DNA of 64,000 nucleotides from Nitrosopumilus sp. (GCA_964225475.1 CAXQOB010000012.1:18521-82520), one strand, 5' to 3'. Numbered from the stretch's first letter, positions 3,801 through 43,849 are shown. Notes: generated from the sequence alone by a model not told the origin. A program made the numbers and translations.

Positions 3801-3914
3801 GTGAAGATGATCGGGCAGATGGGAAGTAATTCGGTGGACACGACTGAAAATGCAGCGTGGGTTGCAACCCTGCGAATGATTTTGAATCTGGATGAATTCA
3901 TTACTCGAGAATAG
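816..3914 (+). CDS. Planctomycete cytochrome c + DUF1549 (PSCyt2) + DUF1553 (PSD1) domain protein, exported, with two CxxCH motifs
   Basis: FDRDIQPIFAKHCLLCHG (planctomycete cytochrome c), HWAY, FGERWGRHWLDKARYADSDG, CARCHSHKYD, RVAVNHLWHHLFGSGIV, HPELLDHLA, FDCPD, C-terminal LNLDEFITRE. The true start may lie downstream of 816. Confidence 0.93.
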   Translation: MLFSVGNANSRFDLIGHWKRDVVACLCLAALHATVLTHTRADDLNSNQIRFDRDIQPIFAKHCLLCHGVDEAEGGLQLHSSDTAMAAADSGMRAIVPGNLDQSELLKRIVSDEVDHRMPPEGDRLTESEVQQLRDWIEQGANWTVHWAYAPISESPVSDLRDNSWSKQDMDRYVLAQLERQGITPSPQAEKTTLIKRLYYDLIGLPPTPDEVSDYLRDTSEDAYPRLVQRLLASDHFGERWGRHWLDKARYADSDGYEKDNHRADAWRYRDWVIQAINDDLPFDQFTIQQLAGDMLTEASADDKLATAFHRQTLTNTEGGTDREQWRVAAVMDRTETLGTVWLGLSVGCARCHSHKYDQITQQEYYQLYAYFNNGDEANADIPKSAERYASLTQELDSAKGLVNQRRDELVESIEVWSPSLRKQALAISADEIQVHALENTQVRGPEGVLFTELDDGSFLVSGDNPDSAKYTIEGTTDVSKVTGIRLEVLPHDSLNAKGPGRTAHGNFVLNEVRLYASSEPAWTPDQKKVLADATADFSQEGWAVAGAIDGVEGVGKSGTGWAISPKFGSPHTATFALDQPLEPGESNLQIVLNQTYGSQHTVGRFRVHVVTGRLPGTGMPEEIRSILIDNKRDAKSVEMLVAYQQAHDPPSAELSKKLQGLEEKLAAETMKVRVISERSSGRRETRVLRRGEFKQPEDLVQPATLTTLPPIRSRNGAAATDRLDLAMWLVSGDNPIVPRVAVNHLWHHLFGSGIVPTMNDFGVRGDSPSHPELLDHLAAKFISEGWSRKKMIEYIVNSATYQQSSSHRPELVDLDPRNRWLHRQNRFRVEAEVMRDIALSVSGLLSEKVGGPSVFPPIPPSVTDLTYNSSFNWKTSAGEDRYRRGLYTYFKRTAPHPNLITFDCPDSNVSNVQRERSNTPIGALVTLNNETFVEAAQGMARLLLNRSDLKTDNARLRYAMRLCIARVPDSEELADFDELLRASRQWYSSHPEEAVKMIGQMGSNSVDTTENAAWVATLRMILNLDEFITRE

Positions 3915-3968
3915 ATGGGTTATACGTTTTTCCGAGTACGTTTTGATACTAGTTTTGAATGAGATGAG

Positions 3969-10364: not shown

Positions 10365-11999
10365 ATGGCCGAAATTCAATCAAATCAACGTACTTCCTTA
10401 AGAGCTGTATGGATATCGAGCATGGGCCGAATGTTTACCCCGAAGCTTCTAATCGTAATCGCTTTCTTATGCTTCATCTCAGTCGATGCTGTTGAGGCTG
10501 AAGAGAGGCCTAATGTGATTTTCTTTTTGGTTGACGATTTGGGTTATCGCGACCTCGGCTGCTTTGGCAGCACTTTTTATGAGACACCAGCGATCGACCA
10601 GTTAGCCAAAGAGGGAATGCGTTTCGATAACGCGTATTCCACGTGTCACGTCTGTTCGCCCAGTCGCGCGAGTATCTTGACGGGTAAGTATCCAGCTCGA
10701 ACCAATTTGACGGAATGGCTGGGTGGGAGACCAGAGCGTCAATATGAAAAGCTACATCATGGTGAGAAGGTGACGTCACTGCCTTTGGGCGAGCAGACGT
10801 TGGCAGCCACATTGAAGTCACATGGTTATGCAACTGCGAATTATGGCAAAGCTCATCTGAATCGTGATCCCAAGACCTATGGATTCGATGAGGCCATCAC
10901 CGGGTGGGTGCGGTCTTACTATCATCCATTTTCTCCGGCGTACAGCCAGTCGTTAGCATCAGAACCTGGAGACTATTTTACGGACAAACTAACCGACGCG
11001 GCCTTGGATTTTATCGAGCGGAATCAAGATCGGCCGTTCTTTGTTCATATGGAGCACTTTTCTGTGCATGATCCGATTCAGGGTCGTAAGGATTTGGTTG
11101 AAAAGTATCGACGCAAGCTTGCAAGGTCGGCGGAGCAATCTGGGCCAAGTTTCATCCTCGAAGGAAATCCGGATGGCCCCACCTTAACGGAAAGCGAGAT
11201 GAAGGAGCTCTCAGATAATGATGAGCTTCGGACCCATCAGGAAGCTCGCGTTTGGTGGGTCAAGCAAAAGCAAGACAATGTAGAATTTGCTGCGATGGTG
11301 GAAGCGACTGACCAGAGTTTACATCGTATTCGCCAGAAGCTAACTGAATTGGGTTTGGAGAAAAAAACAATCATTATTTTCACCTCCGACAATGGTGGGA
11401 TGTCTGCCTCGAATCAGTATCGAGGGATTGATCATCCTCGCGAGGTACTGGATTCACGCTACGCCAGTTCAAATCTGCCTTTGCGTGGAGCAAAAGGTTG
11501 GAATTATGAGGGCGGAATACGAGTTCCGCTCATCGTGCATTGGCCAGGAGTTGTTGGGGGAAATACTGAATCTGATGCGATCGTCACAGGGACGGATTAT
11601 TATCCGACACTCTTGCAAATGCTTGACCTACCCATGTTGCCTGATCAACACTGTGACGGTCAAAGTTTCGTGCCAGCGCTCAAGCAGAAACGATATCAGC
11701 GGGGTCCGATTTATTGGCATTTTCCACATTACAGTAACCATGGGTATCAGAGTCCCGGTGGCGCAATTCGTGTAGGTCGATACAAGTTGCTCGATTACTA
11801 TGAGAATGGAACGGTGCAACTATTTGATTTGCTGAATGATGTAGGAGAGACGAATGACCTCTCGAAAACTCAGCCAGAGTTAGCCGCAAGGCTGTTGGGT
11901 CAACTGAATCGGTGGCGTACCGAGGTTGATGCCAAAATGCCCTACCCGAAGACCGAGACGTCGAAACCTGCACCGGGGGCACGTGTCCAGAAAAAGTAA
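10365..11999 (+). CDS. Sulfatase (S1, arylsulfatase-like)
   Basis: RPNVIFFLVDDLG; CSPSRASILTGKYP; GKAHL; SDNGG; PLRGAKGWNYEGGIRVP. Likely start is ATG at 10422 or 10431. Confidence 0.95.
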   Translation: MAEIQSNQRTSLRAVWISSMGRMFTPKLLIVIAFLCFISVDAVEAEERPNVIFFLVDDLGYRDLGCFGSTFYETPAIDQLAKEGMRFDNAYSTCHVCSPSRASILTGKYPARTNLTEWLGGRPERQYEKLHHGEKVTSLPLGEQTLAATLKSHGYATANYGKAHLNRDPKTYGFDEAITGWVRSYYHPFSPAYSQSLASEPGDYFTDKLTDAALDFIERNQDRPFFVHMEHFSVHDPIQGRKDLVEKYRRKLARSAEQSGPSFILEGNPDGPTLTESEMKELSDNDELRTHQEARVWWVKQKQDNVEFAAMVEATDQSLHRIRQKLTELGLEKKTIIIFTSDNGGMSASNQYRGIDHPREVLDSRYASSNLPLRGAKGWNYEGGIRVPLIVHWPGVVGGNTESDAIVTGTDYYPTLLQMLDLPMLPDQHCDGQSFVPALKQKRYQRGPIYWHFPHYSNHGYQSPGGAIRVGRYKLLDYYENGTVQLFDLLNDVGETNDLSKTQPELAARLLGQLNRWRTEVDAKMPYPKTETSKPAPGARVQKK

Positions 12000-12054: not shown

Positions 12055-14745
12055 ATGAAGGGTGAAGATATTTTTAGGCCTGTTTTTTTACTGAGCATGA
12101 CGTTTTTGTTACGGGTCATTGTGCTGCCCGGCCTGCCCGTTATCTCTGCGGAAACGCAGGAGCTCCAATCACCCAGCAGCGATTTGACCTTGGGCCAAGT
12201 TCGAGACATGGGGCGAGAACGGAGTCGATTTGTAGGTGGGGATGAATCGCGTTCGGACGCGATCGCTACGAATCAAAAGCCGACATCGAATCTAAAGAAG
12301 TATCAAAGTGACGTTCGGTCAATTCTTGTCGAAAGTTGTCAAGACTGTCATGGGCCCGATGATTCTCAGGGGCGACTTCGAATTGATCAGATCGATCCAG
12401 ATTTACTTCAAGGTAAAGATGTCGCTCAGTGGCAAGAGATTTATGCTGCGGTTAGTCACTATGAAATGCCACCACAGGATGATGATGAGCACGTATTAGA
12501 TGAGGTAAAGCGAGGGGTTTTGGTTGACTGGTTGAGTGGTGAGCTGGCAAAAGCGTCAGTGATACAACGCAACAACGGTGTCGCTTCCTCTTTTCGACGA
12601 CTTACGAATTACGAATACAATTATGCTCTTCAGGATCTGCTCGGTCTGAATCATTCGTTGGCCAAAGAGTTACCACCAGAAACAACATCCGAGGAAGGGT
12701 TCAAGAATACCTCCTCGATGTTGCAAATGTCTGCAATGCAGTTTGCGACCTATCGAAAGATTGGATTGGAAGCTTTGCAGCGAGCCGTTGTCGGTGAGGA
12801 TCGACCAGAAACTGTGCGTTACGTTGTGAATATGGAGCAGGAATGGCAAAAAGCATCTGCAGCGACCCCTGACAAAGTTGTTGCGGCTGATAATGAGGCT
12901 TTTCCGAATCAGTTACGGAGATCGCATCTCTGGAACACTGAAACCCAGAGTGCGATACAGTTTTCATCGGGATCATGGAAGCCAGTTCAAGGCGATTCGG
13001 ACCACGCGATCAAGGTTGATTCCGTCGCTATGCTGTCTCTCCCGCGATCCGGAGAGTTGAAAATGAATCTTGATCGATTCTTGCCAGATCTTGGCATCAT
13101 GCGTGTGAGTGTATTGGCCAGTCGGACAACGGATGATCCAAATGAACACGCTGCATTGAGATTCATTTTTAGTGCTCACACGAGCAATAACGCAAACTTT
13201 ACGAATGAAATTAGCGAGCGAGATCTTCCAGTTCATGGTTCCATGGAAAAGCCGCAGTGGATTCATTTCGACATTCCACTTCAAGACATTCAACGCAATC
13301 CGTTTCGAAAGTTGGAGACAACTTTTCCGCGACGTGATGAGTTTTTGCACATTCGCAACATTGCAAATACCAACGGCAAGGACAATTCATTTCGGGTAAT
13401 GATTCACGGTATTGAAATCACGGCACCGTTTTATGATCGTTGGCCACCCAAGACACACACGGATATCTTTTTTGCCAGTGATAACCGTAAAGATGAGCAA
13501 GCTTACGGCGTGGAGGTATTGCAGCGGTTCTTGCAAAGGGTTTGGCGGAGACCCGTTGGGTTGCAGGAAGTTGAACCGTTTATGCAATTGTTCAATGGGT
13601 ATCGCAAGGACTTTGGTCGATTTGAGGACGCGATGGTTGAGGTCCTTGCAACTGCTTTGGCAACACCAGAGTTCCTCTATTTGCGTCAACATGCGGAAGG
13701 TCACCGGGATGAGAATCAGTTGCAGACCGATCAATTTGATTTTGCCTCCAAGCTGGCTGCGTTTCTCTGGTCGAGTCAACCTGATTCTGAACTCCTTAAT
13801 GTTGCGGAGAAAGGCAAGTTAACGGATCCTCGGGTTTTGGATCAGCAAATCTCTCGCATGCTCACCGACGTTAAGTCGGAGCGACTTAGCCAGCACTTCG
13901 TTTCGCAGTGGCTAGGGCTTGAGGGACTGGATGCAACGGTTCACGTGAAGGATCAAGAATTACTGAAGGCGATGCGATCGGAACCAATCGCGCTGTTCAG
14001 TGAGGTCCTTCGGGAAAACCGTAGTGTCGTGGATTTTCTCCATGCGGATTATGTGATGGTGAATGAACGGCTAGCACGCCATTACGGAATTCGTGATGTC
14101 TATGGTCCTGAATTTCAAAAAGTGAATGTGCAGGATTCCCAAAATCGAGGTGGGGTTTTGACCAGTGCTGCGGTGTTGGCAATGAATTCGGATGGAAAGG
14201 AGTCTCATCCACTGAAACGCGGTGTATGGATGTTGGAACGTATTCTGCATGATCCACCACCACCACCACCACCCAATGTTCCTGAGGTTGATCTCACGGA
14301 TCCAAGAATCTTGCAAATGACATTGAAGGAGCGGCTTGCTGATCATCGAAATCAATCGGCTTGTAAGTCATGTCACGCACGCATTGATCCTTGGGGGATC
14401 GCTTTTGAGCAGTACGATGCATTGGGTGCCTTTCGAACGAAATTAGGGAATCAGCCGGTGGACGCAAAGTCGATGCTGTTTAACCGCCAGATTTTAGATG
14501 GGATGGACGGGTTGAAGCGTTATTTGCTATCTGAAAGGCAGGATCAGTTTGCCGGTGCTATGGTTCATAAAATGCTAAGCTACGCCCTGGGACGTCAATT
14601 GACCTTCGGGGATCATGTTGAAATTGAGCGGATCACCCGAGAATTCCGTGCGAGTGAGGATCGGCTAGGGGATCTTGTGCGTTTGATTGTCAGGAGTGAA
14701 TTGTTTGCGAAATTGGACAAAGGCGATTCAATTGGTTTGAAGTAA
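12055..14745 (+). CDS. DUF1587/DUF1595/DUF1592/DUF1588/DUF1585 multi-domain protein with two CxxCH motifs
   Basis: CQDCHG; EMPP; RRLTNYEYNYALQDLLG; FLQRVWRRP; PEFLY; LAAFLWSSQPD; FVSQWL; RGGVLT; SHPLKRGVWMLERIL.DPPPPPPPNVP; CKSCHARIDPWG; KMLSYALGR. Confidence 0.93.
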   Translation: MKGEDIFRPVFLLSMTFLLRVIVLPGLPVISAETQELQSPSSDLTLGQVRDMGRERSRFVGGDESRSDAIATNQKPTSNLKKYQSDVRSILVESCQDCHGPDDSQGRLRIDQIDPDLLQGKDVAQWQEIYAAVSHYEMPPQDDDEHVLDEVKRGVLVDWLSGELAKASVIQRNNGVASSFRRLTNYEYNYALQDLLGLNHSLAKELPPETTSEEGFKNTSSMLQMSAMQFATYRKIGLEALQRAVVGEDRPETVRYVVNMEQEWQKASAATPDKVVAADNEAFPNQLRRSHLWNTETQSAIQFSSGSWKPVQGDSDHAIKVDSVAMLSLPRSGELKMNLDRFLPDLGIMRVSVLASRTTDDPNEHAALRFIFSAHTSNNANFTNEISERDLPVHGSMEKPQWIHFDIPLQDIQRNPFRKLETTFPRRDEFLHIRNIANTNGKDNSFRVMIHGIEITAPFYDRWPPKTHTDIFFASDNRKDEQAYGVEVLQRFLQRVWRRPVGLQEVEPFMQLFNGYRKDFGRFEDAMVEVLATALATPEFLYLRQHAEGHRDENQLQTDQFDFASKLAAFLWSSQPDSELLNVAEKGKLTDPRVLDQQISRMLTDVKSERLSQHFVSQWLGLEGLDATVHVKDQELLKAMRSEPIALFSEVLRENRSVVDFLHADYVMVNERLARHYGIRDVYGPEFQKVNVQDSQNRGGVLTSAAVLAMNSDGKESHPLKRGVWMLERILHDPPPPPPPNVPEVDLTDPRILQMTLKERLADHRNQSACKSCHARIDPWGIAFEQYDALGAFRTKLGNQPVDAKSMLFNRQILDGMDGLKRYLLSERQDQFAGAMVHKMLSYALGRQLTFGDHVEIERITREFRASEDRLGDLVRLIVRSELFAKLDKGDSIGLK

Positions 14746-14826
14746 ACTAGAGATGGAACCGTGTAAGCCACAAAGCTGGCTGCGGGTAACGATTTGGGTT
14801 TCGTCGAGAATCAGCTCGGTGCGAAT

Positions 14827-16242
14827 ATGCTGGAGGAGCAAGAGGTGTCACAAAAGAAAGCCAACTTGAATCGACGTCATTTCCTGCAGGGAACGGGCGT
14901 GGCACTGAGTCTTCCTTGGTTTGAGGCATTAGCGACAGAGCCTGACGCAATCAAACAGACGCCAAGACGTTTTCTGAGCGTCTATCATCCCGATGGTGTC
15001 GGCTTGCCTTTAAAATCAGATCCAGCATGGAATGATTGGAGTTGGTTTCCAAGAGGTGGTGAGCAGGATTTTGAATTAACAAAAGTCCTCGATGTGCTCG
15101 AACCGCTTCGAGGCGAAATAACAATCTACTCCGGCCTTTCTCATCCGGCCGCGAGGCGAGTTCATGGCCACTCCAACGCGGATCAATATCTCACAGGTGC
15201 AGACGTCGGAGGCCACGGTCCTTACAAGAATTCAGTTTCGTTGGATCAGGTCATTGCTGAATATGCTGGTGAATCAACACGGCATGCTTCTCTGGTCATG
15301 TCCACCAATGGCGGTGTTGGCGGTCCACGTGGGGCCCAGACTCAGTCATTCAATCGTGAAGGGCGTCCTATCCCAGCGATGAATCGTCCGAAGCAGATCT
15401 TCGATATGCTCTTTGTGACAAGTGGTAAACAAGCGGCTGAGAAGCTATCACGCAGCAAAAGCGCACTTGATCTTTTAATTGAGAACTCGAAGTCATTCAG
15501 CCGTAAGCTTTCCAGTGCTGATCGTGCAACCTTGCAGCAGTATCTCGATTCCGTTCGAGATACGGAAGTCAAGCTGGTCAAAGCTCAGAAATGGCTCGAC
15601 ACTCCGGTCCCAACGGTGGACACAAGCCGACTAGTGCTTGATGCAGAACCTAAAGAGGCACGACTCTATTTCCAGACAATGTATGAGTTGATCTACCTTG
15701 CCTTCATGAGTGATTCAACTCGAGTCGCAACCTTCCAGTTGGGTCGAGAGAATGGTGAGGGTCCGCACGATCTGCTATCCATGGCGGTTGGGCTCGGCGG
15801 TGCACATGGTCTCACTCATTCAGTCAAAAAGCCTGACGGTTGGAAGAATCTCGGTACCTACAATCGCTACCAAGCTGAGGAATTCGGATGCTTTGTTCAG
15901 CGGCTAAAAGATACGCAAGAGCCGAATGGAAATGGTACCTTGCTGGATAACACTTTTGCGATGCATGGCTCCGCGTCAAGCAGTTTCCATCTTTCACGGA
16001 ACTATCCCATTATCTCTGCCGGTGGTAAGAATCTTGGTTTCCAAAATGGACGTTATCTGAAATTTGGTCGCGGTAATGAAGATAATCAGGCGGGAGCGGG
16101 GATCGATACCGATGCTGGCTGGAGAGGTGAGATACAGGCTGAAGAACTTCCTTTGGCTCACCTTTTTGTCACCATCTTGCAAAGGATGGGTGTTGAGGCG
16201 AATTCATTCGCCGGATACACGGGCACGTTAGACCGCGTGTAA
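14827..16242 (+). CDS. DUF1552 (HXXSHH-type) Tat-exported protein, partner of the DUF1592 protein
   Basis: LNRRHFLQGTGVALSLPWFEAL; SVSLDQVIAE; DRATLQQYLDSVRDTE; FMSDSTRVATF; GTLLDNT; H..RNYPII.AGG; LAHLFVTILQRMGV. The ORF track starts at 14794. Confidence 0.92.
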   Translation: MLEEQEVSQKKANLNRRHFLQGTGVALSLPWFEALATEPDAIKQTPRRFLSVYHPDGVGLPLKSDPAWNDWSWFPRGGEQDFELTKVLDVLEPLRGEITIYSGLSHPAARRVHGHSNADQYLTGADVGGHGPYKNSVSLDQVIAEYAGESTRHASLVMSTNGGVGGPRGAQTQSFNREGRPIPAMNRPKQIFDMLFVTSGKQAAEKLSRSKSALDLLIENSKSFSRKLSSADRATLQQYLDSVRDTEVKLVKAQKWLDTPVPTVDTSRLVLDAEPKEARLYFQTMYELIYLAFMSDSTRVATFQLGRENGEGPHDLLSMAVGLGGAHGLTHSVKKPDGWKNLGTYNRYQAEEFGCFVQRLKDTQEPNGNGTLLDNTFAMHGSASSSFHLSRNYPIISAGGKNLGFQNGRYLKFGRGNEDNQAGAGIDTDAGWRGEIQAEELPLAHLFVTILQRMGVEANSFAGYTGTLDRV

Positions 16243-16320: not shown

Positions 16321-17907
16321 TTATTTCGCTGGTTGCACTGGATGTCGTCGTACGACCACATCATTGTGCTGATTGGGTCCGGGTGTGCTACGACCTCTAC
16401 GGATCAGTGTCTCCAATAGCTGTTGCAACTCTTCAACAACCGCAGGATATGTGGAAGCTAGGTTTTGCGTTTCACCAATGTCATTTTCAAGGTTATACAG
16501 CTGATGCGGTTGACTCTGATCGCCACCCTTGCCCCAGCCTCCTGACGATGGCACTGGAATGTACTTCCACTGATTCTTGCGAATACTCGGGATGCCACGA
16601 ATCGAGCAGCTGACAGAGTTTTCGCGAACAGGTGAATTCGAGCCCTTTAGTAACGGAAGGAAGCTCACGCTGTCCTCCCCTGCGTTATCGGGGAGAGGGG
16701 CTTGCATGACTTCGGACAGCGTGGCCAAAAGATCTGATTGATGAACCAACTGATTGCAAATAGATCCTGGTTTTGTGACGCCATCCCACCTGACGATAAA
16801 CGGAACGCGGTGCCCACCTTCCCACGCATCTGCCTTATATCCTCGAAGGTCGCCGCTCGGGAAATGCCCTTTCTTTTCTAATTGATCGACTCCGATGTAA
16901 GGAGCGCATCCATTATCACTTGTGAAGATGATCAATGTCTTCTTATCAATTTTATTCTGTTCTAAAGCAGCCAGAACCTTTCCCACAATCGAATCTGTTT
17001 CCATGACAAAATCGGCATACAGATTGAGATTACTTTTCCCCTTCCATTCGTCGTTAACAGAAAGAGGGGTATGTGGAGAGGTCAGCGGTAGGTAAAGCAG
17101 GAAGGGGGATGCTGATTTCGCTTGTCGGTTGATGAAATCACAGGCGCGGTCACCCAACGCAGGAAGAATCGGTTCGAGTGTCCAGCCCGGTAACGCGGGT
17201 CCTTGTTGGCTCGCTTGATTTTTAATGAAGAGATTGGGAGCGGCAAATTCGCTGGGGATTCCAACCGTGCGGTCATTTTCAATGAAGCAATACGGGGGCC
17301 AGTTAGGAACATCGGTGCCAAAGTATTCGTCAAATCCGACAGCAGTCGGTCCGCCGCTGATCGGCTTTGAAAACGCTTGTTTCCATGCCGCTCGGTGTTG
17401 GTCAGTTGCCTCCAGGTCTTTCTTGCCGTTGTAGCCTGTGGTCTTGAAGAATTGTTTTTGCGTTTCCGCGATTGGCCAGTTCCATCCTAAGTGCCATTTT
17501 CCAATACATGCAGTGGCGTAACCCTGTTTTTTTGCAAGAGATGCGATGGTGACGCGATCCGGTTTGATCAGGGGGCTTCCCCAGAGACCAACAATTCCAC
17601 TTTGCAAGCGGGTTCGCCAGTGATAGCGCCCTGTAAGAATCGTATACCGGGAGGGCGAACAAACCCCCGATGACGAATGGCCATCTGTAAATCGCATGCC
17701 CTGTGTTGCGAGTCGATCAATGTGTGGGGTTGCGATCCGACCACGGTCCTGGTTGTAGGATTGAACATCGCCGTATCCAAGGTCGTCTGCATAGAGGATG
17801 ACAACATTCGGCGCTGTTTCATAAGCCCGAAGGATACTGGTTGAAATGCAGGCGTGAACCAGAAATACGAGGGTGAATCTGTAGGTAATCGCGACCGTGA
17901 TGTTCAT
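16321..17907 (-). CDS. Arylsulfatase (S1)
   Basis: PNVVILYADDLGYGD; CSPSRYTILTGRY; GKWHLG; TSDNG; RGYKADAWEGGHRVP. The ORF track starts at 17925. Confidence 0.95.
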   Translation of the reverse strand: MNITVAITYRFTLVFLVHACISTSILRAYETAPNVVILYADDLGYGDVQSYNQDRGRIATPHIDRLATQGMRFTDGHSSSGVCSPSRYTILTGRYHWRTRLQSGIVGLWGSPLIKPDRVTIASLAKKQGYATACIGKWHLGWNWPIAETQKQFFKTTGYNGKKDLEATDQHRAAWKQAFSKPISGGPTAVGFDEYFGTDVPNWPPYCFIENDRTVGIPSEFAAPNLFIKNQASQQGPALPGWTLEPILPALGDRACDFINRQAKSASPFLLYLPLTSPHTPLSVNDEWKGKSNLNLYADFVMETDSIVGKVLAALEQNKIDKKTLIIFTSDNGCAPYIGVDQLEKKGHFPSGDLRGYKADAWEGGHRVPFIVRWDGVTKPGSICNQLVHQSDLLATLSEVMQAPLPDNAGEDSVSFLPLLKGSNSPVRENSVSCSIRGIPSIRKNQWKYIPVPSSGGWGKGGDQSQPHQLYNLENDIGETQNLASTYPAVVEELQQLLETLIRRGRSTPGPNQHNDVVVRRHPVQPAK

Positions 17908-18052
17908 GATGTGTTCAAGGACCACTTATTAGAATCCTATTAGTGGACAGATGCCGTCGGCTTTGCGCCAGATTGTATCGAAGATTTTGGCTTCACTCTG
18001 TTTCAAAAGCCATGATTGCGAACAAATACAGCGATTCGTCAGAATCCAATGT

Positions 18053-24137: not shown

Positions 24138-25241
24138 TCAGGGTTTCACTGCGATTCGTATGGGTGCTTTTTCTGTAGCGTAATCGAACGCGAGGGCAGA
24201 TTGATCCAGAGGGAAAACTTTCGAGACTAGTTTTTCAAAGGGGTAAGTGTCCTTTGAGTGGCTCAAGAAATGGATCGCTTCAGCAAGATCCCGAGCGTGG
24301 TAATTATGAAGCCCTCGTATGGTCAGCATTTGTCGCACCACCACCTCAGGGTTTAATTTGATCTGCGGTGATCGGAATACAGATCCAGCAAGTAGCAAGC
24401 ATCCACCAATCCGCAAGTGCTCAAGGCTACTTGTGATCGCCTCTGTGTTACCTGAAAAATCAAAGGCAATGTCAGCACCACGATGTTGCGTCAGCTCTTG
24501 GATCTTGGTTTGGAGCGATTCGGTCTGGCAGGATTCAAAACACTCCGATGCACCAAACTCTCTCGCAATCTTGCGTCTTTCTAGATTCGGTTCAACCACC
24601 AAAATGTTTGCACCTCGTTCCTTGAGGTAAGCTGCTGCGGTAAGCCCCAGCATGCCTGCGCCAATCACTAAGATCGTCGTGTTTTTTATGGGATGCGTTT
24701 CTTCAACCAGTCGCGTAGCACCGCATACAGTCGCTGTCGCGCAATTGGCAGGGCACATTAGGGTGTCAGGAAGACCTTCTTTGATTGGAAAGATCGCAGT
24801 GCCGGACTTTAGAACACAGTGTTGCCCGAGACCACCGGTAGGTTGGTGATCACTCTCGTCGTGCCCGTATTTGAATTTCGATTGGCATTTCTGCGGTAGG
24901 TTGTCTTTACAGTAGAAACAGTCACCACAGGAGGCCACCAATGACCAAGTGACTCTTTGTCCTTTGTTCAATGGGTTGCCGAAGTAATCCTTCGGGCTAT
25001 CGGTTCCATTCCACTCTTCAATCGTCCCAATGATCTCGTGACCTAGGACGCATCCCGTGTCGGCGGTCGGTCGTCTTCCGCTGTAGGTATGGAGATCACT
25101 CCCGCAGATCGTGCATAGCGAAATCTTGACAAGTATCTCACCGTTTTTTAACTGCGGTTTGCGATAAGATTCGCTTTGAAACGTTTTAGATTTTGGAAGA
25201 TAGCGAACTGCTGTGCCAAAATGATTGGGTTCATGTTCCAT
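24138..25241 (-). CDS. Zn-dependent alcohol dehydrogenase, phosphonate-catabolism-associated type (TIGR03366-like)
   Basis: CTICGSDLH and GHE (catalytic Zn); CGDCFYC...C (structural Zn); GAGMLG; CATATV; divergent from the phosphonate-associated genes. Confidence 0.88.
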   Translation of the reverse strand: MEHEPNHFGTAVRYLPKSKTFQSESYRKPQLKNGEILVKISLCTICGSDLHTYSGRRPTADTGCVLGHEIIGTIEEWNGTDSPKDYFGNPLNKGQRVTWSLVASCGDCFYCKDNLPQKCQSKFKYGHDESDHQPTGGLGQHCVLKSGTAIFPIKEGLPDTLMCPANCATATVCGATRLVEETHPIKNTTILVIGAGMLGLTAAAYLKERGANILVVEPNLERRKIAREFGASECFESCQTESLQTKIQELTQHRGADIAFDFSGNTEAITSSLEHLRIGGCLLLAGSVFRSPQIKLNPEVVVRQMLTIRGLHNYHARDLAEAIHFLSHSKDTYPFEKLVSKVFPLDQSALAFDYATEKAPIRIAVKP

Positions 25242-25450
25242 TGTGTTTTCCCTGCCAACGGTGCGTCTAATGCGCTCGATTCTGCAATTAAATTGGCAAG
25301 AACGATGCCGGTGCTACTCTCGGTCAGGATATGTTTACCATTGAGTTGACGCTGCTTTCGGTGAGCAATGATAATAACTTGGTGGTGTTGCGGTGGTATA
25401 CGGGGTCAAACGATCTTTCGAAAAGTTCGCCGTTTTATAAGTTGAGGCTG

Positions 25451-26731
25451 ATGAATCGATCTAATCTTTCGAAGAGGCTGACGGAATTTCGGGGGCACTT
25501 CTTTTCGTTGTATTGCATCATTGCTGCGTTCGGTACGTATTTTTGCATGTATGCATTTCGAAAGCCCTTCACCGCAGCGACCTATGAGGATTCAGAGTGG
25601 TTTGGCGTCGGGTTGAAAACCTTGCTGATCGCTTCACAAGTCGCTGGTTATACGCTTTCAAAATTCTTTGGCATTAAATTTGTCTCTGAAATCAAGAAGC
25701 GTCATCGCGGAATTGCGATTGTCATCTTGGTTTTATCTGCAGAATTAGCACTGCTGCTTTTTGCCGTGACCCCCGCGCCTTGGAACTGTATTTGGCTTTT
25801 TTTTAATGGGCTACCTCTGGGGATGGTGTTCGGGCTGGTTTTGGGGTTTCTGGAGGGGAGGCGAGTATCCGAGGTGCTGGCGGCCGGGCTGTGTGCCAGC
25901 TTTATTGTCTCCTCTGGATTCGTGAAGACGGTTGGTCGTGCTTTACTGCAAAATGAGTTCGTAACAGAATCATGGATGCCTTTCTTTACAGGGCTCCTGT
26001 TTCTTTTACCACTCCTTTTGTTTGTTGGGATGCTTTCACGAATTCCGGAGCCAAATGATCGAGATGTTCTGTCGCGATCCGCTCGAGATCCAATGGACAA
26101 AGAGACACGTTTTAAGTTTTTTCGAGGGCATGCGGTTGGATTATCAAGCCTGATTTTGATCTACATGTTGATCACAGTGGTACGTAGCCTCCGTGACGAT
26201 TTTGCTGTGGAAATTTGGTCTGATCTTGGGGTTGAGGACGAACCTGCCTTGTTCGCGATTTCTGAATTTTGGGTCATGTTTGGGGTAATCTTTATTAATG
26301 GATGCTTCAGTTTGATCAGTAATAATCGGGCTGCGTTTCTAAGTTCAATTGGTACAATTATCGTGGGCGGCGTCATCATCTTATCTGCTGTCTACGGACA
26401 CTACGTCGATTTCTTTTCGCCAATGACCCTTATCATTTTGCTTGGGGTCGGAATGTATCTTCCCTACGTCGCATTCCATACAACCATGTTCGAGAGGATG
26501 ATTGCCGTCTGTAAGGAGACAGGAAACGTCGGGTATCTGATGTATTTGGCAGACGCAGTTGGGTACCTGGGATATGTAGCAGTGCTTATATTTCGTAACC
26601 TCTATTCGGGGCAGCTCGGTTACCTTTCCTTATTGATGATTAGTGCATCGGTTGTCGCGATCGTGTCATCAGTGGTCACGGTTTGGTTGTTATTTCATTT
26701 CTACGCACGAACGACCCATTCATCTCGCTAG
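25451..26731 (+). CDS. DUF5690-family MFS-like transporter, putative phosphonate importer
   Basis: About 12 TM; YFCMYAFRKPF, SQVAGYTLSKFFGIKFVSE, NGLPLGMVFG, FLEGRR, MYLPYVAFHTTMFER, GYLMYLADAVGYLG. ATG at 25451; the ORF track starts at 25331. Confidence 0.85.
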   Translation: MNRSNLSKRLTEFRGHFFSLYCIIAAFGTYFCMYAFRKPFTAATYEDSEWFGVGLKTLLIASQVAGYTLSKFFGIKFVSEIKKRHRGIAIVILVLSAELALLLFAVTPAPWNCIWLFFNGLPLGMVFGLVLGFLEGRRVSEVLAAGLCASFIVSSGFVKTVGRALLQNEFVTESWMPFFTGLLFLLPLLLFVGMLSRIPEPNDRDVLSRSARDPMDKETRFKFFRGHAVGLSSLILIYMLITVVRSLRDDFAVEIWSDLGVEDEPALFAISEFWVMFGVIFINGCFSLISNNRAAFLSSIGTIIVGGVIILSAVYGHYVDFFSPMTLIILLGVGMYLPYVAFHTTMFERMIAVCKETGNVGYLMYLADAVGYLGYVAVLIFRNLYSGQLGYLSLLMISASVVAIVSSVVTVWLLFHFYARTTHSSR

Positions 26732-26748
26732 GAGGATGTTGCATCAAC

Positions 26749-27912
26749 ATGGAGAGTCAAGAAGCAGATCTCTTGGTGATTGGCGGTGGCGTTCTCGGCG
26801 CTTTTCATGCTTTTCATGCACTGCAACGCGGACTTCGTGTCACGATGTTGGAACGCAATTCCGAGCCTCTGGGAGCGACGGTGCGGAATTTTGGGCAGGT
26901 TGTTCCCTCGGGTATGGACTCTCACTGGCAGCAGTTGGGGCGACGGAGCCTCCAGATTTACCAGACATTGCAGAGCGAGGCAGATCTCTCGATTCGTCAG
27001 CAAGGTAGTATTTATATCGCTTCGGATGAGTGTGAATTGGCGCTGCTGGAGGAGCTGGCCGATATCAACCGCCAAAACGATTACTGCTCCGAGTTGTTGT
27101 CAGCGAAGCAATGCTGCGAACGTTATCCCGGGTTGAGAACCGACTACTGTAAAGGCGGTCTCTTCTTTCCCGATGAATTATCACTCAACCCTCGCGAGAT
27201 GATTCATCGATTGCATCGTCTGCTCAAGGCAAATGCTGATTACCACTGTTGTTTCAGTGCGGGGGTGAAAGAGCTCTCGGAAGTTGGTTCGGAAGGTGTC
27301 GTTGCAGTTACAGAATCGGATCAGCGTTATTACGCGAAACGAGCCATCTTGTGTGGCGGATGTGACTTTCGTTCACTGTTTCCTGATGTATTTCTTCGTA
27401 GCGGTTTGGTGACGGTTCAGTTGCAAATGACGCGTCTGAGGCCGAATACGGCTCAACGGTTACCTGGGAATATTTTGACAGGGTTGACGATCCGCCGGTA
27501 TGAAAGTTTTTCATTCTGTCCGTCTTGGCAATCCGTGCAGTCGCAGAATGACGGTGAGGATTTTGCCACGAAGTGGGGGATTCACATTCTATTCAAGCAG
27601 GAGGTAGACGGCGGGATGATCCTTGGGGATTCACACGAGTATGCAAAACTAGGTGAAGAGGCGAACCTAGACTTTGGTCTTCGGCAGGATATCACCGACT
27701 TCTTCATTCGCGAGGGTCGCAAGATTTTTGATTTGCCGCACTGGGAGATTGACACATCATGGATGGGGCGATACTCACAGACCTCTGACCCCTCTGGTAT
27801 CTTTAAAGAGACGATTGGAGACCGAATTCATATCGTTACCGGGATTGGTGGCAAGGGAATGACCGCGAGCCCTGGATTTGCTGAGAACCACATCGGGGAG
27901 ATTTTTTCATGA
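26749..27912 (+). CDS. FAD-dependent oxidoreductase, DAO-like, phosphonate-associated (TIGR03364-like)
   Basis: DLLVIGGGVLG (FAD binding); GATVRNFGQ; LTGLTIRRYESF; GIHILFKQ; ILGDSHEY; TGIGGKGMT. AGGAGG lies upstream of ATG 26749. Confidence 0.88.
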   Translation: MESQEADLLVIGGGVLGAFHAFHALQRGLRVTMLERNSEPLGATVRNFGQVVPSGMDSHWQQLGRRSLQIYQTLQSEADLSIRQQGSIYIASDECELALLEELADINRQNDYCSELLSAKQCCERYPGLRTDYCKGGLFFPDELSLNPREMIHRLHRLLKANADYHCCFSAGVKELSEVGSEGVVAVTESDQRYYAKRAILCGGCDFRSLFPDVFLRSGLVTVQLQMTRLRPNTAQRLPGNILTGLTIRRYESFSFCPSWQSVQSQNDGEDFATKWGIHILFKQEVDGGMILGDSHEYAKLGEEANLDFGLRQDITDFFIREGRKIFDLPHWEIDTSWMGRYSQTSDPSGIFKETIGDRIHIVTGIGGKGMTASPGFAENHIGEIFS

Positions 27913-28577
27913 TAAAGTTGGTCGTATTCGACATGGCTGGGACAACCGTTGATGAGGACAATGTTGTCTACAAGACGGTAAGAGCGGCGATCAATTCAGC
28001 CGGTTACTCTTTCACTCAAGATCAAGTGCAAGCGGCAGGCGCCGGTAAGGAAAAATCCCAGGCCATACGTGATGTTCTGGCTCTTGATGGATCGGAGCAT
28101 GATGAAGAAGAGGTGCAAGTCATCTTCGCTGATTTCAAGAGGCTTCTCGCCGCGGCTTACTGCGATCTAGATGTACGCGAGCAGCCCTACACCACAGAGG
28201 TCTTTGAAGCGTTACGTGAGCGGGGAATCAAAGTGGTGCTGAATACGGGATACGATCGAAAAACTGCAGAAAGCTTGATCGACAAGATTGGATGGAAACT
28301 GCATGAACACTTTGATGCATTGGTGACGGCCAGCGATGTCGAGAATGGTCGCCCGGCGCCCGATATGATTCACCTTGCTATGGATCGAGTTGGGGTCAGC
28401 GAATCCAAAGCGGTGGTCAAAATAGGTGACTCGCAAATTGATATTCACGAAGGTAAGAACAGTGATTGTGGAGTGACGATAGGGATTACAACAGGTGCTC
28501 AGACTCAGTCGCAACTATTGGAGGCCAGTCCAACATACATCATTCACTCACTGCGTGAATTATTAGAGCTTGTTTGA
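27909..28577 (+). CDS. Phosphonatase-like HAD hydrolase (PhnX-like, TIGR03351-like)
   Basis: VVFDMAGTTVDE (DxAGT, as in phosphonatases); GKEK; LNTGY; GRPAPDMI; KIGDSQIDI.EG. ATGA overlap with the oxidoreductase stop codon. Confidence 0.88.
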   Translation: MIKLVVFDMAGTTVDEDNVVYKTVRAAINSAGYSFTQDQVQAAGAGKEKSQAIRDVLALDGSEHDEEEVQVIFADFKRLLAAAYCDLDVREQPYTTEVFEALRERGIKVVLNTGYDRKTAESLIDKIGWKLHEHFDALVTASDVENGRPAPDMIHLAMDRVGVSESKAVVKIGDSQIDIHEGKNSDCGVTIGITTGAQTQSQLLEASPTYIIHSLRELLELV

Positions 28578-28778
28578 TTCTGGGGTAAGCTGCAGGGGTA
28601 GCTTTATTTGATATCGAGTCAATTCCGCAGTGTTATGGTTCTGCAAGCAGTGAAGAGGATCTGGCTGTTTATTTAACGATCCATCACATTCCGGTAGTGC
28701 ACAGGTGTGTTAGTCGGTGACGATTGCGTTACAATTCACACGAATTATGGGTCAGTTGTTTCTTTTTCGGAATATACA

Positions 28779-29110: not shown

Positions 29111-30367
29111 TTATTGATTCAACTGTTCCTCAATCGTTTCCTTCGAGGCGCGAGATCCGAGTGCACCCCACAAGCCATAAGGGCTTTCTGAGCCGGGAGT
29201 GTTGATGCGATTATTCAGCCAGACCATCGGTGCTCGGTTGTCGCCGGCTTCAATCGAATCCGTGATAAACACCACTGCTCCATCGGCCATTAGAACGTGC
29301 GCTCCACCTTGGTGACGACTCGAAGCGGACCATACACCGGTTTGACCGGCATTGTTTCCGCTGCAGATTTCTGCATTGGGTGGCAGAATCGTGTGGAACC
29401 CAGACGCATAGGGACGGAAATCCGCCCAGCGGTATCCGCGTCGTGCAGCCACACCATCCAATGCGACCCCCTGCGCCCAGAATCTTGGTCGCTCAGGGTC
29501 GATCTGCCCCTGATCAGCACACCACTTGGGATTGTCCCTAATGGATCTTGGTGGGTTCTGGCTACGGTTTCGCGTTGAGCTGGTGCGGTTATCGCGATCC
29601 CCTAGATCCGTCGCAATTTCACCCATTGCAACCGTATTAGCGAGTCCATCGAGAATATCACGGAATTTGGATTCCTTGTGAGGTACGAAGACACCACGAT
29701 CAGCTGCTCGACTCTGTCGATTCCAACCATTGTTGCTGAAGTTCATGATTCCAGGCGTGCGAAAGCGAAGGTGTCCTGGGCCTCGGACGGACCACCACAT
29801 TGAGTCGCCCATGCAGACGGCGTAGTTAGTTCTTCCCAAAGCAGGAAGGCCTTGGCCCGGATCACTCGGGCAACGCAGCGTTGGTATCTCAGTGACCCAA
29901 GGCTGGTAGCGGATCTGAGACGGCACTGGTCCCATTGCCGGCCAAGGTACCGTGTACGGTGTGTCAGGTGCTAAAGCATTAACAAGACTTGGATTGCTGA
30001 TCTGCTCCCAAACTGCCTGTTGCTCGATAAAGGGGGTGAGCCCAACAAGTGCACTCAGACGCCAGGCATTCGCAGCGCCATAGTTGGACCACCAGTTGGT
30101 CGTAGCTCCCCTGCTACCCGCAGGTGCGATTCCACCGAGTGTATCGGTGCCGGCACCATGAGTTGGTAACTGCTTGTAGGCACTGTGGTAGTTATGGATG
30201 GCTAAACCGATTTGTTTGAAATTATTGCTGCAGCTCATTCGCCTCGCTGCTTCCCTCGCAGCTTGAACCGCCGGCAACAACAAGCCAACAAGAATACCGA
30301 TGATGGCGATCACCACCAGAAGTTCGACAAGGGTAAATCCCAAGCGATCTTTTTTATTAATCTTCAT
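29111..30367 (-). CDS. DUF1559 prepilin-type N-terminal cleavage/methylation protein with H-X9-DG motif
   Basis: G|[39 protein letters not shown]; LRCPSD; RTNY; [24 protein letters not shown] 5 nt before ATG 30367. Confidence 0.95.
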
Positions 30368-30672
30368 GAACACTCCTATGAGATAAGGGAACTACGGTTG
30401 AGTAGGCTAACAGCTTTGACCTAGTTGCTGAAGATTTGTCCCACATTATGGTTTCAAAAACTCGGTTTTTCTCTACGTAGAGGGCAGAACTCTCTACTAC
30501 TTGGTGGGGCAGAAACCACCATCCTTTTCCCCTTCAATCCTTGTCATTAGATGTGATTGAAAATCAGGATTGATCCTAGATCGCCCACGGAGAAGTCCTC
30601 AGCTCACCGAGTCTCGGTTGGAAATATGATCTTAGCGACGAGTTTGACTGCGGGATGGAAGAGGGTTCACCA

Positions 30673-36239: not shown

Positions 36240-37166
36240 TCATTGCATGGTGATCTGCCGTTCGCTGATTCTTGGCACCACCGTCGAGGGTTCGGGTCGG
36301 TTGGGGGTCTGGAAGTATCCCATTTCACTGGGTGATTCATCCTTCCAGCTGCTATGTGATGCTTCGACTCGAACGGTTGACATCTTGGGGTCAATCGTGA
36401 GGGTGGTGAAAAGTGGATCGGTGTAATATGCCATCCTTGTCTTGCCGCCAACCCAGTAGTACGAGGCTGAGTTAATGTGGAGGTACGGGACCTGATTGAC
36501 TTGACGCATTGCGTCAAGATGGCTGTGGCCGTTCAGGCACGCAATGACCTTGGAGCGATGGCGTCCGATTAATTGTTGAATCTCGTTGGCGTTGTTAATA
36601 CTGCTCCTGCCTGCGAGAGGCTGGTGACTGAGGATTAGGATCGGCTTGGTTGATTCTTTTAGTTGTTCCTCCAACCACGCTTGTTGATCTGGTCCGATGT
36701 ATGAAGGGTACCCTCCGCGATGAGTCGGTGATCCACTCTCATTTCCATCTAAGACAAGGATGCGGATACCTGCCACGTCACGCCGATAGTAACTCGATTC
36801 AATTCCCCATGCGTCGTAGATGTCTTTTCGATCAAGTCCATGATCAAATTCATGATTACCGATGACGTGAATGGTTTCTTGGTGTGCTGCATTAAATTTA
36901 TTTGCAAATTGTTTGTGAGCGGAGTTTGGATAAGCGAAATCGCCTAATTGGATAAGCGCGTCACATTCCATTGGTTTCATCGCACTCAGGAACGCACCGA
37001 GTCTCATTTCTGCATCATTGGCAAGGCCCCCGTGCAGGTCAGCTATGAGGCCAAAACGAATCAGATTCTCCGATGGCACTTTGCTGGCCAAGGTTTTCGT
37101 CATCACAAACGTCGTTGATAGAGCACCAAGCTTTCTTAAAGCGTTCCGGCGATCGATGCATTTCAT
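36240..37166 (-). CDS. Calcineurin-like metallophosphoesterase, Tat-exported
   Basis: IDRRNALRKLG Tat signal; DLH, GDF, GNHE, SHQP and GHSH metal motifs. Confidence 0.9.
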   Translation of the reverse strand: MKCIDRRNALRKLGALSTTFVMTKTLASKVPSENLIRFGLIADLHGGLANDAEMRLGAFLSAMKPMECDALIQLGDFAYPNSAHKQFANKFNAAHQETIHVIGNHEFDHGLDRKDIYDAWGIESSYYRRDVAGIRILVLDGNESGSPTHRGGYPSYIGPDQQAWLEEQLKESTKPILILSHQPLAGRSSINNANEIQQLIGRHRSKVIACLNGHSHLDAMRQVNQVPYLHINSASYYWVGGKTRMAYYTDPLFTTLTIDPKMSTVRVEASHSSWKDESPSEMGYFQTPNRPEPSTVVPRISERQITMQ

Positions 37167-37224
37167 GGGAATGTTGCCGCACGTGAATAGAGCCTTCGTC
37201 ATAATATTCTTTCAAGGACTCAAG

Positions 37225-42070: not shown

Positions 42071-42189
42071 CCATCATCGAGAGAGAATTGTCATATTGAC
42101 CAAACACTGCGGATGCCTGCGAGTTAGATCACAGGTCTCATGCGTTGGGTCGTCATTGAGTGGCGTTACAGGCAGTCAACGGGGAGATT

Positions 42190-43668
42190 GTGATCAAGAA
42201 CGCTCGCAAGCTAATTGGCTTTCTCTGTTTACTATTCGCGCCTCCCGCGCGAGCGGATCTTACTGAAAACCCAATTGCAACGCGTCCAAATGTCCTGCTG
42301 ATTGTTTCGGAGGACAACAGTGAGCACCTGGGCTGTTATGGTGAATCGCGAGTTCACACTCCCCACCTTGATCGTTTGGCCTCAGGGGGTGTGCGGTATA
42401 CGCGGGCTTATGTTCCCTATTCTGTTTGCAGTCCATCAAGGGCAGCGTTTCTGACGGGGCTCTACACTCGACAGACGGGCCACATTGGTCTGGCAACTCA
42501 TCGATTTTCGATGTTTCAAGACTTCAAAACCATTCCCGCGTATTTTCAGGAAGCTGGTTATTACACGGGTTTTCTTGGTAAGACCCACGTTAATCCTGAG
42601 AGATTGGTGGAGGACCACATTGATCATCGCGCCATTCCGCAATCCAATTTCAACAAATCCATCAGTATTCAGCAATACGCGGAGGAAGCGTCGCTGGTGA
42701 TGCAGGGAGCAAAGAAGCGAAATAAGCCCTTCCTGCTAATAGTTAATTATGCCGACGCGCACCGAAGCTATATCGGCAAATCAAAGGCTGGTTTTCCATC
42801 GCGTCACATCGAGGACAGTGTTGAGCCGTTCCCGTGGATTGGTTCCGATAGTGAGCATTTGCGAATGGAGATTCGAGATTACTTTAATTGTATTAATCGG
42901 CTCGATGAAGGAATTGGGATGGTGCTTGACCGCATGGTTCAGGCGGGTGTGAGAGAGAATACGTTGGTCATTTATATCAGTGATCATGGTGCTGATTTCC
43001 CGAGAGGCAAAGGCAGTGTCTATGAGCACGGAACTCGCATTCCAATGATTATCAATGATTCTCATCATTTCTCCGGAGGAAGGGTTGAGAACGCATTTGT
43101 CTCAACCATCGATCTCTTGCCCACGCTGCTGCATGCTGCGGATTTGCCGATTCCTGAACAGTTGCCAGGTTTTGCTCTGCAAGAAATTGAAACATCGAGC
43201 GAGCAGAAGCGAAAGTACATCCATACATTTACAACCGGGTCATCGCCCGGATTGCTTTACGTTCAATTTGGAATCCGTGATGAGCGATTTAAACTGATCT
43301 ATAGTCCGGATCGAGCGTTGAATCGCCTCGCTGAGTCGCGTTATCGAAATAGTCGGTTGCCTCAAGATCAACAGGTGGCCAGCTTTCTCTACCCACCGAA
43401 ATATGAGCTTTACGATCTGCAGGTCGATCCGGATGAATGGCACAACTTAGCTGAAAACCATGAGTACTCTCTGGCTCGTGATCGACTGCTGAAAGCGATG
43501 CGAGATTTCCAGGCTCGCATCGGAGATCCGTTTCTACAACCATCAAATTTGGATCAGTTCATCGCAGAGCAGAAAGAGTATCAGAGTAAAACGTACAAGC
43601 GAGCTGATTTTAGATGGCCCCATCTGCAGATGTTTGAGGCGGCTCAGTTGCCATCTGAGCGGGAGTGA
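42190..43668 (+). CDS. Sulfatase (S1, N-sulfoglucosamine sulfohydrolase-like)
   Basis: RPNVLLIVSED; CSPSRAAFLTG; GKTH; SDHG; FPRGKGSVYEHGTRIP. GGGGAG RBS before GTG 42190. Confidence 0.94.
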   Translation: MIKNARKLIGFLCLLFAPPARADLTENPIATRPNVLLIVSEDNSEHLGCYGESRVHTPHLDRLASGGVRYTRAYVPYSVCSPSRAAFLTGLYTRQTGHIGLATHRFSMFQDFKTIPAYFQEAGYYTGFLGKTHVNPERLVEDHIDHRAIPQSNFNKSISIQQYAEEASLVMQGAKKRNKPFLLIVNYADAHRSYIGKSKAGFPSRHIEDSVEPFPWIGSDSEHLRMEIRDYFNCINRLDEGIGMVLDRMVQAGVRENTLVIYISDHGADFPRGKGSVYEHGTRIPMIINDSHHFSGGRVENAFVSTIDLLPTLLHAADLPIPEQLPGFALQEIETSSEQKRKYIHTFTTGSSPGLLYVQFGIRDERFKLIYSPDRALNRLAESRYRNSRLPQDQQVASFLYPPKYELYDLQVDPDEWHNLAENHEYSLARDRLLKAMRDFQARIGDPFLQPSNLDQFIAEQKEYQSKTYKRADFRWPHLQMFEAAQLPSERE

Positions 43669-43849
43669 TTGTGTTGGTTCGATGTGTTGGCTTTGTCAAT
43701 GAAAGCTTGGTGAATGTTGGCAGATGTTTTATGCTGAACGACGCATGTCGCCATGTTTTTTCTGCGAAAACGTGGCCGCCCGAATTAATCTCAACCTATC
43801 AGTTCTGTATTTTTTTCCGCCAATTGTCTATCCGTTAGAGGTAACGATT

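Follow-up and report, generated by a model that had tools for sequence, protein, structure and literature searches.

A predicted phosphonate-degradation module combining a DUF5690 permease with PbfG-, PbfD- and PhnX-type enzymes in a marine planctomycete

Organization and conservation of the locus

The stretch of DNA analysed here, referred to as the window, comprises 64,000 nucleotides of assembly GCA_964225475.1 (CAXQOB010000012.1:18521-82520), which is listed under Nitrosopumilus sp. It carries genes for a Zn-dependent alcohol dehydrogenase (ADH), a DUF5690 transporter, a flavin adenine dinucleotide (FAD)-dependent oxidase, and a hydrolase of the HAD superfamily (Table 1). The locus is very probably a hydrolytic phosphonate-mineralization module in which two entry reactions converge on phosphonoacetaldehyde (PAA). 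The original prediction, an earlier reading of the window, had placed four open reading frames (ORFs) at 24138-28577, with a 17-bp gap and an ATGA overlap. All of these are present as claimed, and the families it named are correct for all four genes, each protein scoring above its curated family cut-off.

Table 1. Features of the phosphonate locus, in window coordinates
Feature	Position	Strand	Remarks
pbfG-type Zn/NAD alcohol dehydrogenase (TIGR03366)	24138..25241	-	Predicted 2-hydroxyethylphosphonate dehydrogenase forming phosphonoacetaldehyde; TIGR03366, PF00107, PF08240
Divergent intergenic region between pbfG and the DUF5690-pbfD-phnX-like operon	25242..25450	.	Sigma-70-like site inside
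DUF5690 (PF18943) 12-helix MFS-fold permease	25451..26731	+	Predicted importer of 2-substituted ethylphosphonates
pbfD-type FAD-dependent aminophosphonate oxidase (TIGR03364)	26749..27912	+	TIGR03364, PF01266
PhnX-like HAD hydrolase (TIGR03351)	27909..28577	+	Predicted phosphonoacetaldehyde C-P hydrolase
Weak terminator-like hairpin	28587..28604	+	7-bp stem followed by a T-rich tail; 10 bp past the last operon stop

The pbfG-type gene is divergent from the three plus-strand genes. The longest DUF5690 ORF begins at 25331; the ATG at 25451, which gives a protein of 426 amino acids, is more likely to be the start because homologues and the nearest called genes begin at that position. The pbfD gene starts at the ATG at 26749, downstream of an AGGAGGA ribosome-binding site and 17 bp beyond the DUF5690 stop at 26731. 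The hydrolase ATG at 27909 overlaps the pbfD TGA as ATGA, an arrangement of translational coupling. Each cassette gene is single-copy in the genome, and the base composition of the cassette is the same as that of its surroundings.

The divergent intergenic region contains a sigma-70-like site at 25346-25375 (+; TTGACG-18-GATAAT, 10 of 12 matches), which is weak evidence for a promoter, such sites being no more numerous than in shuffled sequences. Across seven homologous cassettes, a vague TTGAC-like element recurs in several of the intergenic regions, and a search of these regions for a conserved operator or Pho box found none that was clear. The hairpin downstream of the hydrolase gene is only suggestive, as the number of terminator-type hairpins equals the shuffle expectation.

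The layout of a divergent pbfG followed by DUF5690-pbfD-phnX-like recurs outside the window genome. It is present on two Tara Oceans scaffolds at 80-84% amino acid identity, in Rhodopirellula europaea 6C and several Pirellulaceae metagenome-assembled genomes, and in Roseimaritima ulvae, where an unrelated HD phosphohydrolase lies downstream. Because of this recurrence, the four-gene arrangement is not due to chance. Flanking genes vary among the homologous loci, and the cassette is therefore bounded by the dehydrogenase and hydrolase genes. Neighbouring genes for a PfkB kinase, a HAD-IIA protein and a PQQ-propeller protein were rejected as further members, since they are not kept beside the cassette in its closest relatives.

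The PbfD-type oxidase

PbfD is the name given by Zangelmi et al. (2023) to FAD-dependent oxidases of family TIGR03364 (PMC10590968). PbfD1 from Acinetobacter baumannii and PbfD2 from the planctomycete Mariniblastus fucicola use O2 to convert N-methyl-2-aminoethylphosphonate (N-methyl-AEP) and 2-aminoethylphosphonate (AEP) to PAA. PbfD1 is a poor AEP oxidase, with a Michaelis constant (KM) for AEP of 71 mM, and M. fucicola is devoid of phnW. The same study put forward a PbfD-PhnX pathway of two enzymes and named additional Planctomycetota clusters (PMC10590968).

The window oxidase scores 374.1 bits on TIGR03364 (cut-off 285.1) and 159.8 bits on PF01266, and its N-terminal FAD-binding GxGxxG motif reads VIGGGVLG (residues 10-17). 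By BLASTP, PbfD1 (E 2e-43) and PbfD2 (E 8e-45) each share 30% identity with it along the whole protein, and PbfB and PbfC give no meaningful match (E>0.1). A maximum-likelihood tree, for which the PbfD reference sequences were taken from a figure by optical character recognition and in which PbfD1 sits on a long branch, places it in a well-supported 11-member Pirellulaceae clade inside the PbfD group and sister to PbfD1 (100/99 support). Long branches set this clade off from both tested enzymes. Ten of its 11 members adjoin a TIGR03351-type hydrolase, and none was found beside the Allorhodopirellula copy. In the window, too, pbfD adjoins a PhnX-like gene, in line with the genomic context by which PbfD is recognized, a neighbouring PAA-degrading enzyme (phnX, or phnY plus phnA).

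By family score and phylogeny, the FAD enzyme of the window is a PbfD member. This is the outcome of the placement against PbfB, PbfC and PbfD that the original prediction had called for: the oxidase falls with the two characterized PbfDs rather than with PbfB or PbfC. Because it sits with PbfD1, whose KM for AEP is so high, plain AEP may be used only weakly, the true substrate being perhaps N-methyl- or N,N-dimethyl-AEP.

The locus shares with the published PbfD-PhnX pathway a TIGR03364 oxidase directly upstream of a phosphonatase-type hydrolase, a planctomycete host, the lack of phnW from cluster and genome, and a predicted chemistry that runs from the amine through PAA to acetaldehyde and inorganic phosphate (Pi). 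It differs in that its hydrolase is of the TIGR03351 subtype rather than a canonical PhnX, a pbfG gene is attached, and the oxidase belongs to a separate Pirellulaceae clade about 30% identical to the tested PbfDs. The window also has no phnZ, whereas three of the four planctomycete clusters recognized in Table S1 of the published work are phnX-only with phnZ, and the fourth, from Gimesia benthica, is phnWX with phnZ (PMC10590968).

The PhnX-like hydrolase

The HAD protein of the window belongs to TIGR03351 (281.1 bits against a cut-off of 218.9) and falls below the cut-off for canonical PhnX, TIGR01422 (114.9 against 220). Its best relatives in the PDB are the phosphonoacetaldehyde hydrolase structures of Bacillus cereus, 1FEZ and 1RQL. 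It shares with PhnX the HAD fold, the Asp nucleophile in a DxAGT motif and the Schiff-base Lys of the cap, and it has equivalents of Arg160 and Tyr128. The residues kept are D8-x-A10-G11-T12, K49 (Lys53 of PhnX), R148 (Arg160), Y115 and D174; among these, D8, A10-G11-T12, K49 and R148 are invariant in all 18 members of the TIGR03351 subgroup.

Unlike canonical PhnX, the window protein is about 30 residues shorter and has Met in place of Trp13. It also carries His56-to-Ala and Met49-to-Ala replacements, which are invariant or dominant in the TIGR03351 subgroup. Position 56 is occupied by Ala (Ala52 in the window protein) in 18/18 subgroup members and by His in 31 of 32 canonical sequences from similar modules. 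In NCBIfam scans, DUF5690/TIGR03366/TIGR03364/PhnZ modules that are otherwise the same carry a TIGR03351 hydrolase in some cases and a TIGR01422 hydrolase in others. It is mainly on account of this alternation that the TIGR03351 enzyme, with its conserved catalytic residues, is predicted to be a PAA hydrolase as well.

A different aminophosphonate, such as 1-hydroxy-2-aminoethylphosphonate (HAEP), could instead be the substrate of the pathway. The oxidase would then form a substituted phosphonoacetaldehyde, for which the His56-less hydrolase would be specialized, as in an old TIGRFAMs hypothesis. The invariant loss of His56 and cap changes such as Met49 to Ala mark TIGR03351 as distinct, the PbfD clade of the window lies on long branches from both tested enzymes, and the TIGR03364 annotation text, which covers a role for the oxidase only, does propose HAEP (quoted in PMC10590968). 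This alternative is nevertheless unlikely. When PbfD1 and PbfD2 were screened on amino compounds by authors who had synthesized (R)-HAEP derivatives, appreciable activity was seen only on AEP and its N-alkyl derivatives (PMC10590968). The swapping of TIGR03351 and canonical PhnX in identical modules argues for a shared substrate, PAA; the PbfG-type enzyme encoded in the same locus would yield unsubstituted PAA; and many related modules have a PhnZ (TIGR03276) gene of their own for HAEP. PAA thus stands as the predicted substrate of the hydrolase.

Close, named TIGR03351 homologues occur in Roseimaritima, Stieleria, Rhodopirellula and Aeoliella. In Aeoliella mucimassa (CP036278.1, locus L029, 7800-10690), a TIGR03351-type hydrolase 71% identical to that of the window is found without PbfD, PbfG or DUF5690; it directly follows a 717-aa protein of the sulfatase/phosphodiesterase family and lies near a PhoD phosphatase. 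A phylum-wide tally, in which 1 of 401 genomes exceeded the TIGR03351 cut-off, was discarded as an artefact in which HAD paralogues crowd out the true match: the scan scored at most seven first-look candidates per genome, so that true matches in paralogue-rich superfamilies can be missed. Three genomes scored absent or weak for TIGR03351 (G190, G370 and G223) in fact carry a PhnX-type hydrolase about 2 kb or less from DUF5690.

The DUF5690 permease

DUF5690 (PF18943) is represented in the window by a protein scoring 459 bits on the family model. PF18943 is its only Pfam assignment, with no match to MFS_1 at E<0.001, and a profile built from 27 DUF5690 sequences found no chain among the PDB sequences at E<=1. 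The AlphaFold2 model has a mean predicted local distance difference test score of 90.4 and a predicted template modelling (TM) score of 0.89, and adopts a 12-helix fold of the major facilitator superfamily (MFS). Compared with the PDB, it returned 361 matches at E<=0.001, and the 50 best of these are all MFS carriers. The top fold matches, at TM-scores of about 0.6-0.7, are G6PT/SLC37A4, SLC37A2, sialin and DgoT, and G6PT and SLC37A2 are glucose-6-phosphate/Pi exchangers. Its nearest neighbours by fold are carriers of organophosphates and organic anions.

The genomic neighbourhood of DUF5690 was examined across phyla. Of 401 Planctomycetota genomes sampled, 29 encode DUF5690, and a scan of species-representative genomes found at least 598 loci. 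The best 80 (L088-L167), which span Planctomycetota, Verrucomicrobiota, Acidobacteriota, Bacteroidota, Armatimonadota and Pseudomonadota, were analysed. At least one homologue of pbfG, pbfD, phnX or phnZ lies within 9 kb of DUF5690 in 73 of them. The partners are a PbfG-type ADH (51 loci), PbfD (41), PhnX or a PhnX-like protein (38) and a PhnZ-type HD protein (38), and 27 loci carry a pbfG-type ADH and pbfD together. NCBIfam scans of these modules identify the ADH as TIGR03366 and the HD protein as TIGR03276. From its fold and these neighbours, DUF5690 is predicted to import phosphonates. A literature search found no paper linking DUF5690 or PF18943 to phosphonates.

AepP is a GlpT-like MFS permease for AEP in Pseudomonas putida BIRD-1 (Murphy et al. 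2021, PMC8316502). Like AepP, DUF5690 is a single-component carrier of MFS fold encoded beside AEP catabolic genes, in place of ATP-binding cassette (ABC) systems of the PhnCDE, PhnSTUV or AepXVW type. AepP was rejected as the identity of DUF5690, since it is a recognizable GlpT relative from a different family. DUF5690 has no sequence-level match to solved transporters, and its likeness to G6PT, SLC37 and sialin is confined to the predicted fold.

In three planctomycete loci (L064, L065 and L066, from genomes G176, G008 and G098), DUF5690 is divergent beside a CDP-alcohol phosphatidyltransferase gene (PF01066) and no catabolic enzymes are present. Imported AEP could in these cases be salvaged into phosphonolipids rather than broken down.

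The PbfG-type dehydrogenase

PbfG from Cellulosimicrobium protaetiae is a pf00107 Zn-dependent dehydrogenase nearest to threonine dehydrogenase (Piazza et al. 2026, PMC13576164). It oxidizes 2-hydroxyethylphosphonate (HEP) to PAA with a kcat/KM of 8.8e4 M-1 s-1 and has no appreciable activity on ethanol, 1-propanol or threonine. The reaction is reversible, with thermodynamics that favour HEP, and Arg, His, Asn and Ser residues bind the phosphonate in the PbfG model. Phosphonate clusters that include PbfG occur in Actinomycetota, Planctomycetota (Pirellulales) and other phyla, and pbfG is also present in two Actinoplanes biosynthetic clusters (PMC13576164).

The window ADH scores 389.6 bits on TIGR03366 (cut-off 328.1), and the next-best NCBIfam models are L-threonine 3-dehydrogenases. 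It also matches PF00107 and PF08240. Seven of its residues (C46, S48, R57, H68, H127, C167 and N313) do not vary across 63 of 63 homologues linked to DUF5690 and correspond in order and spacing to Cys45, Ser47, Arg56, His66, His124, Cys166 and Asn298 of PbfG. C46, H68 and C167 would be the catalytic Zn ligands, and S48, R57, H127 and N313 are predicted to bind HEP. The structural-Zn cysteines (105, 108, 111 and 119) and a GxGxxG motif at 194-199 are present as well.

The window enzyme thus matches PbfG as a medium-chain Zn-dependent dehydrogenase in its catalytic Zn ligands, its structural Zn site and the residues predicted to bind the phosphonate, and the two also share a genomic link with phnX, pbfD and phnZ and an occurrence in Pirellulales. 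It is predicted to be a HEP dehydrogenase that feeds the pathway. Because PbfG is specific for the conversion of HEP to PAA and has no appreciable activity on ethanol, the ADH would be a second entry point, and the original prediction that it handles the aldehyde or alcohol product does not hold (PMC13576164). The window differs in having its pbfG divergent from a transporter-pbfD-phnX operon and in the same locus as pbfD, whereas HEP and AEP clusters are described as often separate (PMC13576164). Divergence from the operon is constant in Pirellulaceae-type cassettes; most other lineages have the pbfG-type gene after DUF5690 in the same orientation.

A single linear pathway is quite unlikely; in that scheme the ADH would come after C-P cleavage, reducing or oxidizing the resulting acetaldehyde or alcohol. 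PhnX does yield acetaldehyde in need of disposal, and a Zn-ADH beside the operon could serve this role; the TIGR03351 model description reportedly proposes such a downstream ADH. However, the characterized PbfG is HEP-specific, without appreciable activity on ethanol or 1-propanol (PMC13576164), and the window ADH has the invariant Arg57, His127, Asn313 and Ser48 that correspond to the phosphonate binders of the PbfG model. In addition, DUF5690 is the sole partner of the ADH in 16 of the 80 loci, where PhnX is missing from the surrounding 9 kb, which fits action of the ADH on an imported compound and not on a PhnX product. The preferred role of the window ADH remains that of a HEP dehydrogenase.

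Phosphonate genes absent from the genome

The genome that contains the window (5.25 Mb, 233 contigs, 94.7% complete) was searched for phnW, phnZ, phnA and phnJ, as the original prediction had proposed. None exceeded its family cut-off, so the absence first noted for the window extends to the assembled genome. The best PhnW match, on another contig, reaches 133 bits against a cut-off of 400.8 and finds its highest scores with generic models of class-V aminotransferases. There is no real match to PhnZ (TIGR03276), and a tblastn search of the genome with a PhnZ-type protein of related loci was also empty. PhnJ, PhnA, canonical PhnX and phosphoenolpyruvate (PEP) mutase are likewise absent from this assembly. 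The locus therefore differs from the classical PhnWX, PhnWYA, PhnY*Z and C-P lyase pathways, whose phnW, phnA, phnZ and phnJ are lacking in the window genome. A lipoprotein-like binding protein of the PhnD family is encoded at 4668-5291 (-) of contig C132, scoring 74.5 bits on TIGR01098 (cut-off 112) and 57 bits on the PhnD model TIGR03431 (cut-off 261).

The module is judged catabolic rather than biosynthetic because the genome has no PEP mutase. It is extremely unlikely either that the HAD protein is an ordinary phosphatase or that the locus serves biosynthesis, in which case the ADH would reduce PAA to HEP. Weak scores on HAD-superfamily phosphatase models would suit a phosphatase, but the DxAGT motif of the protein has no Asp+2 general acid of HAD phosphatases, and its phosphonatase-specific cap Lys is invariant. 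A biosynthetic role would draw on the reversibility of PbfG, the equilibrium in favour of HEP and the two Actinoplanes biosynthetic clusters that contain pbfG (PMC13576164); the locus instead holds an importer and a deaminating oxidase and no biosynthetic genes.

Predicted pathway and its relation to known systems

Phosphonates make up a large pool of marine dissolved organic phosphorus, and HEP is reported to occur esterified to marine polysaccharides. Marine polysaccharides are degraded by sulfatase-rich planctomycetes such as this one, which would fit an entry through PbfG.

In the mineralization module proposed here, the DUF5690 permease would import small 2-substituted ethylphosphonates, namely HEP and AEP or N-methyl-AEP. 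The PbfG-type Zn/NAD dehydrogenase would then oxidize HEP to PAA with NAD+, as demonstrated for its homologue. In the second entry reaction, the PbfD-type oxidase would convert N-methyl-AEP, and probably AEP, to PAA with release of methylamine or ammonia and H2O2; this step is modelled on two homologues at about 30% identity, and PbfD would take the place of the lacking PhnW. Finally, Lys49 of the PhnX-like HAD would form a Schiff base with the carbonyl of PAA, and the phosphoryl group would be transferred to Asp8, releasing acetaldehyde and Pi. The general route put forward by the original prediction, from a secondary transporter through flavin-dependent oxidative deamination to an aldehyde, here PAA, and C-P cleavage by a HAD enzyme, is supported.

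Several points weigh against this reading. The enzymology comes from homologues outside the organism's immediate clade and, for the hydrolase, from a sister subfamily. The oxidase is only about 30% identical to either characterized PbfD, and its tree position is with PbfD1, the poor oxidizer of plain AEP. The TIGR03351 hydrolase is without His56, which is listed with Asp12 and Lys53 as directly catalytic in B. cereus PhnX (PMC11203657), and a literature search found no report of an assayed TIGR03351 hydrolase. The PbfG residues were mapped by position and spacing rather than by direct alignment to the assayed C. protaetiae protein, and phosphonate import by DUF5690 is predicted from fold and gene neighbourhood only. 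A phnW gene may lie in the unassembled part of the genome. Moreover, co-expression of PbfG with PhnX and PbfD has been argued to cause a tug-of-war over PAA, and HEP and AEP clusters are often separate (PMC13576164). The co-localization of pbfG and pbfD in about a third of the DUF5690 loci sits uneasily with this published separation of routes.

Pathways of this kind have already been published, and two of the three enzyme families involved were characterized in 2023 and 2026. The suggestion that it is undescribed is contradicted by the published PbfD-PhnX route, which includes the planctomycete PbfD2 (PMC10590968), and the statement that no biochemically validated route of such composition was known in planctomycetes is superseded by the same work together with the PbfG study (PMC13576164). 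What the locus contributes is distribution data, not new biochemistry: in a lineage of marine planctomycetes, the HEP and N-methyl-AEP/AEP entries would occur together in one locus, served by a single permease, without PhnW, PhnZ or C-P lyase.

The leads that remain are DUF5690 as a candidate phosphonate transporter family and possible metagenome marker gene, the His56-less TIGR03351 hydrolase, and the frequent pairing of pbfG with pbfD. One joint reading, about as likely as not, is that DUF5690 is an undescribed, highly divergent MFS family dedicated to 2-substituted ethylphosphonates (HEP, AEP or N-methyl-AEP, HAEP) that serves interchangeable PbfG/PbfD/PhnX/PhnZ modules in at least six phyla, and that TIGR03351 is a mechanistically distinct, His56-free C-P hydrolase. 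The HAEP racemase PbfF (pfam02826) was also weighed as a match for the ADH but dismissed, being of another fold family.

The surrounding window

Outside the cassette, the window has the gene content typical of marine planctomycetes, with PSCyt/PSD pairs, DUF1501, a DUF1559 prepilin-like protein and an H+-pyrophosphatase. Two gene pairs are planctomycete-specific: PSCyt1/DUF1549/DUF1553 with DUF1501 at 816-5453, and DUF1587/1592/1595/1588/1585 with DUF1552 at 12055-16242 (+). Together with the DUF1559 H-X9-DG protein at 29111-30373, both pairs confirm the planctomycete phylum.

A PhoD-like phosphatase (48109-49722, -) and a calcineurin-like phosphoesterase (36240-37202, -) are encoded 8-20 kb downstream of the cassette. 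They possibly contribute to further phosphorus scavenging, outside the conserved module. The window also contains four sulfatase genes, at 10365-11999 (+), 16321-17925 (-), 42160-43668 (+) and 43724-45169 (+), a number typical of marine polysaccharide-degrading planctomycetes.

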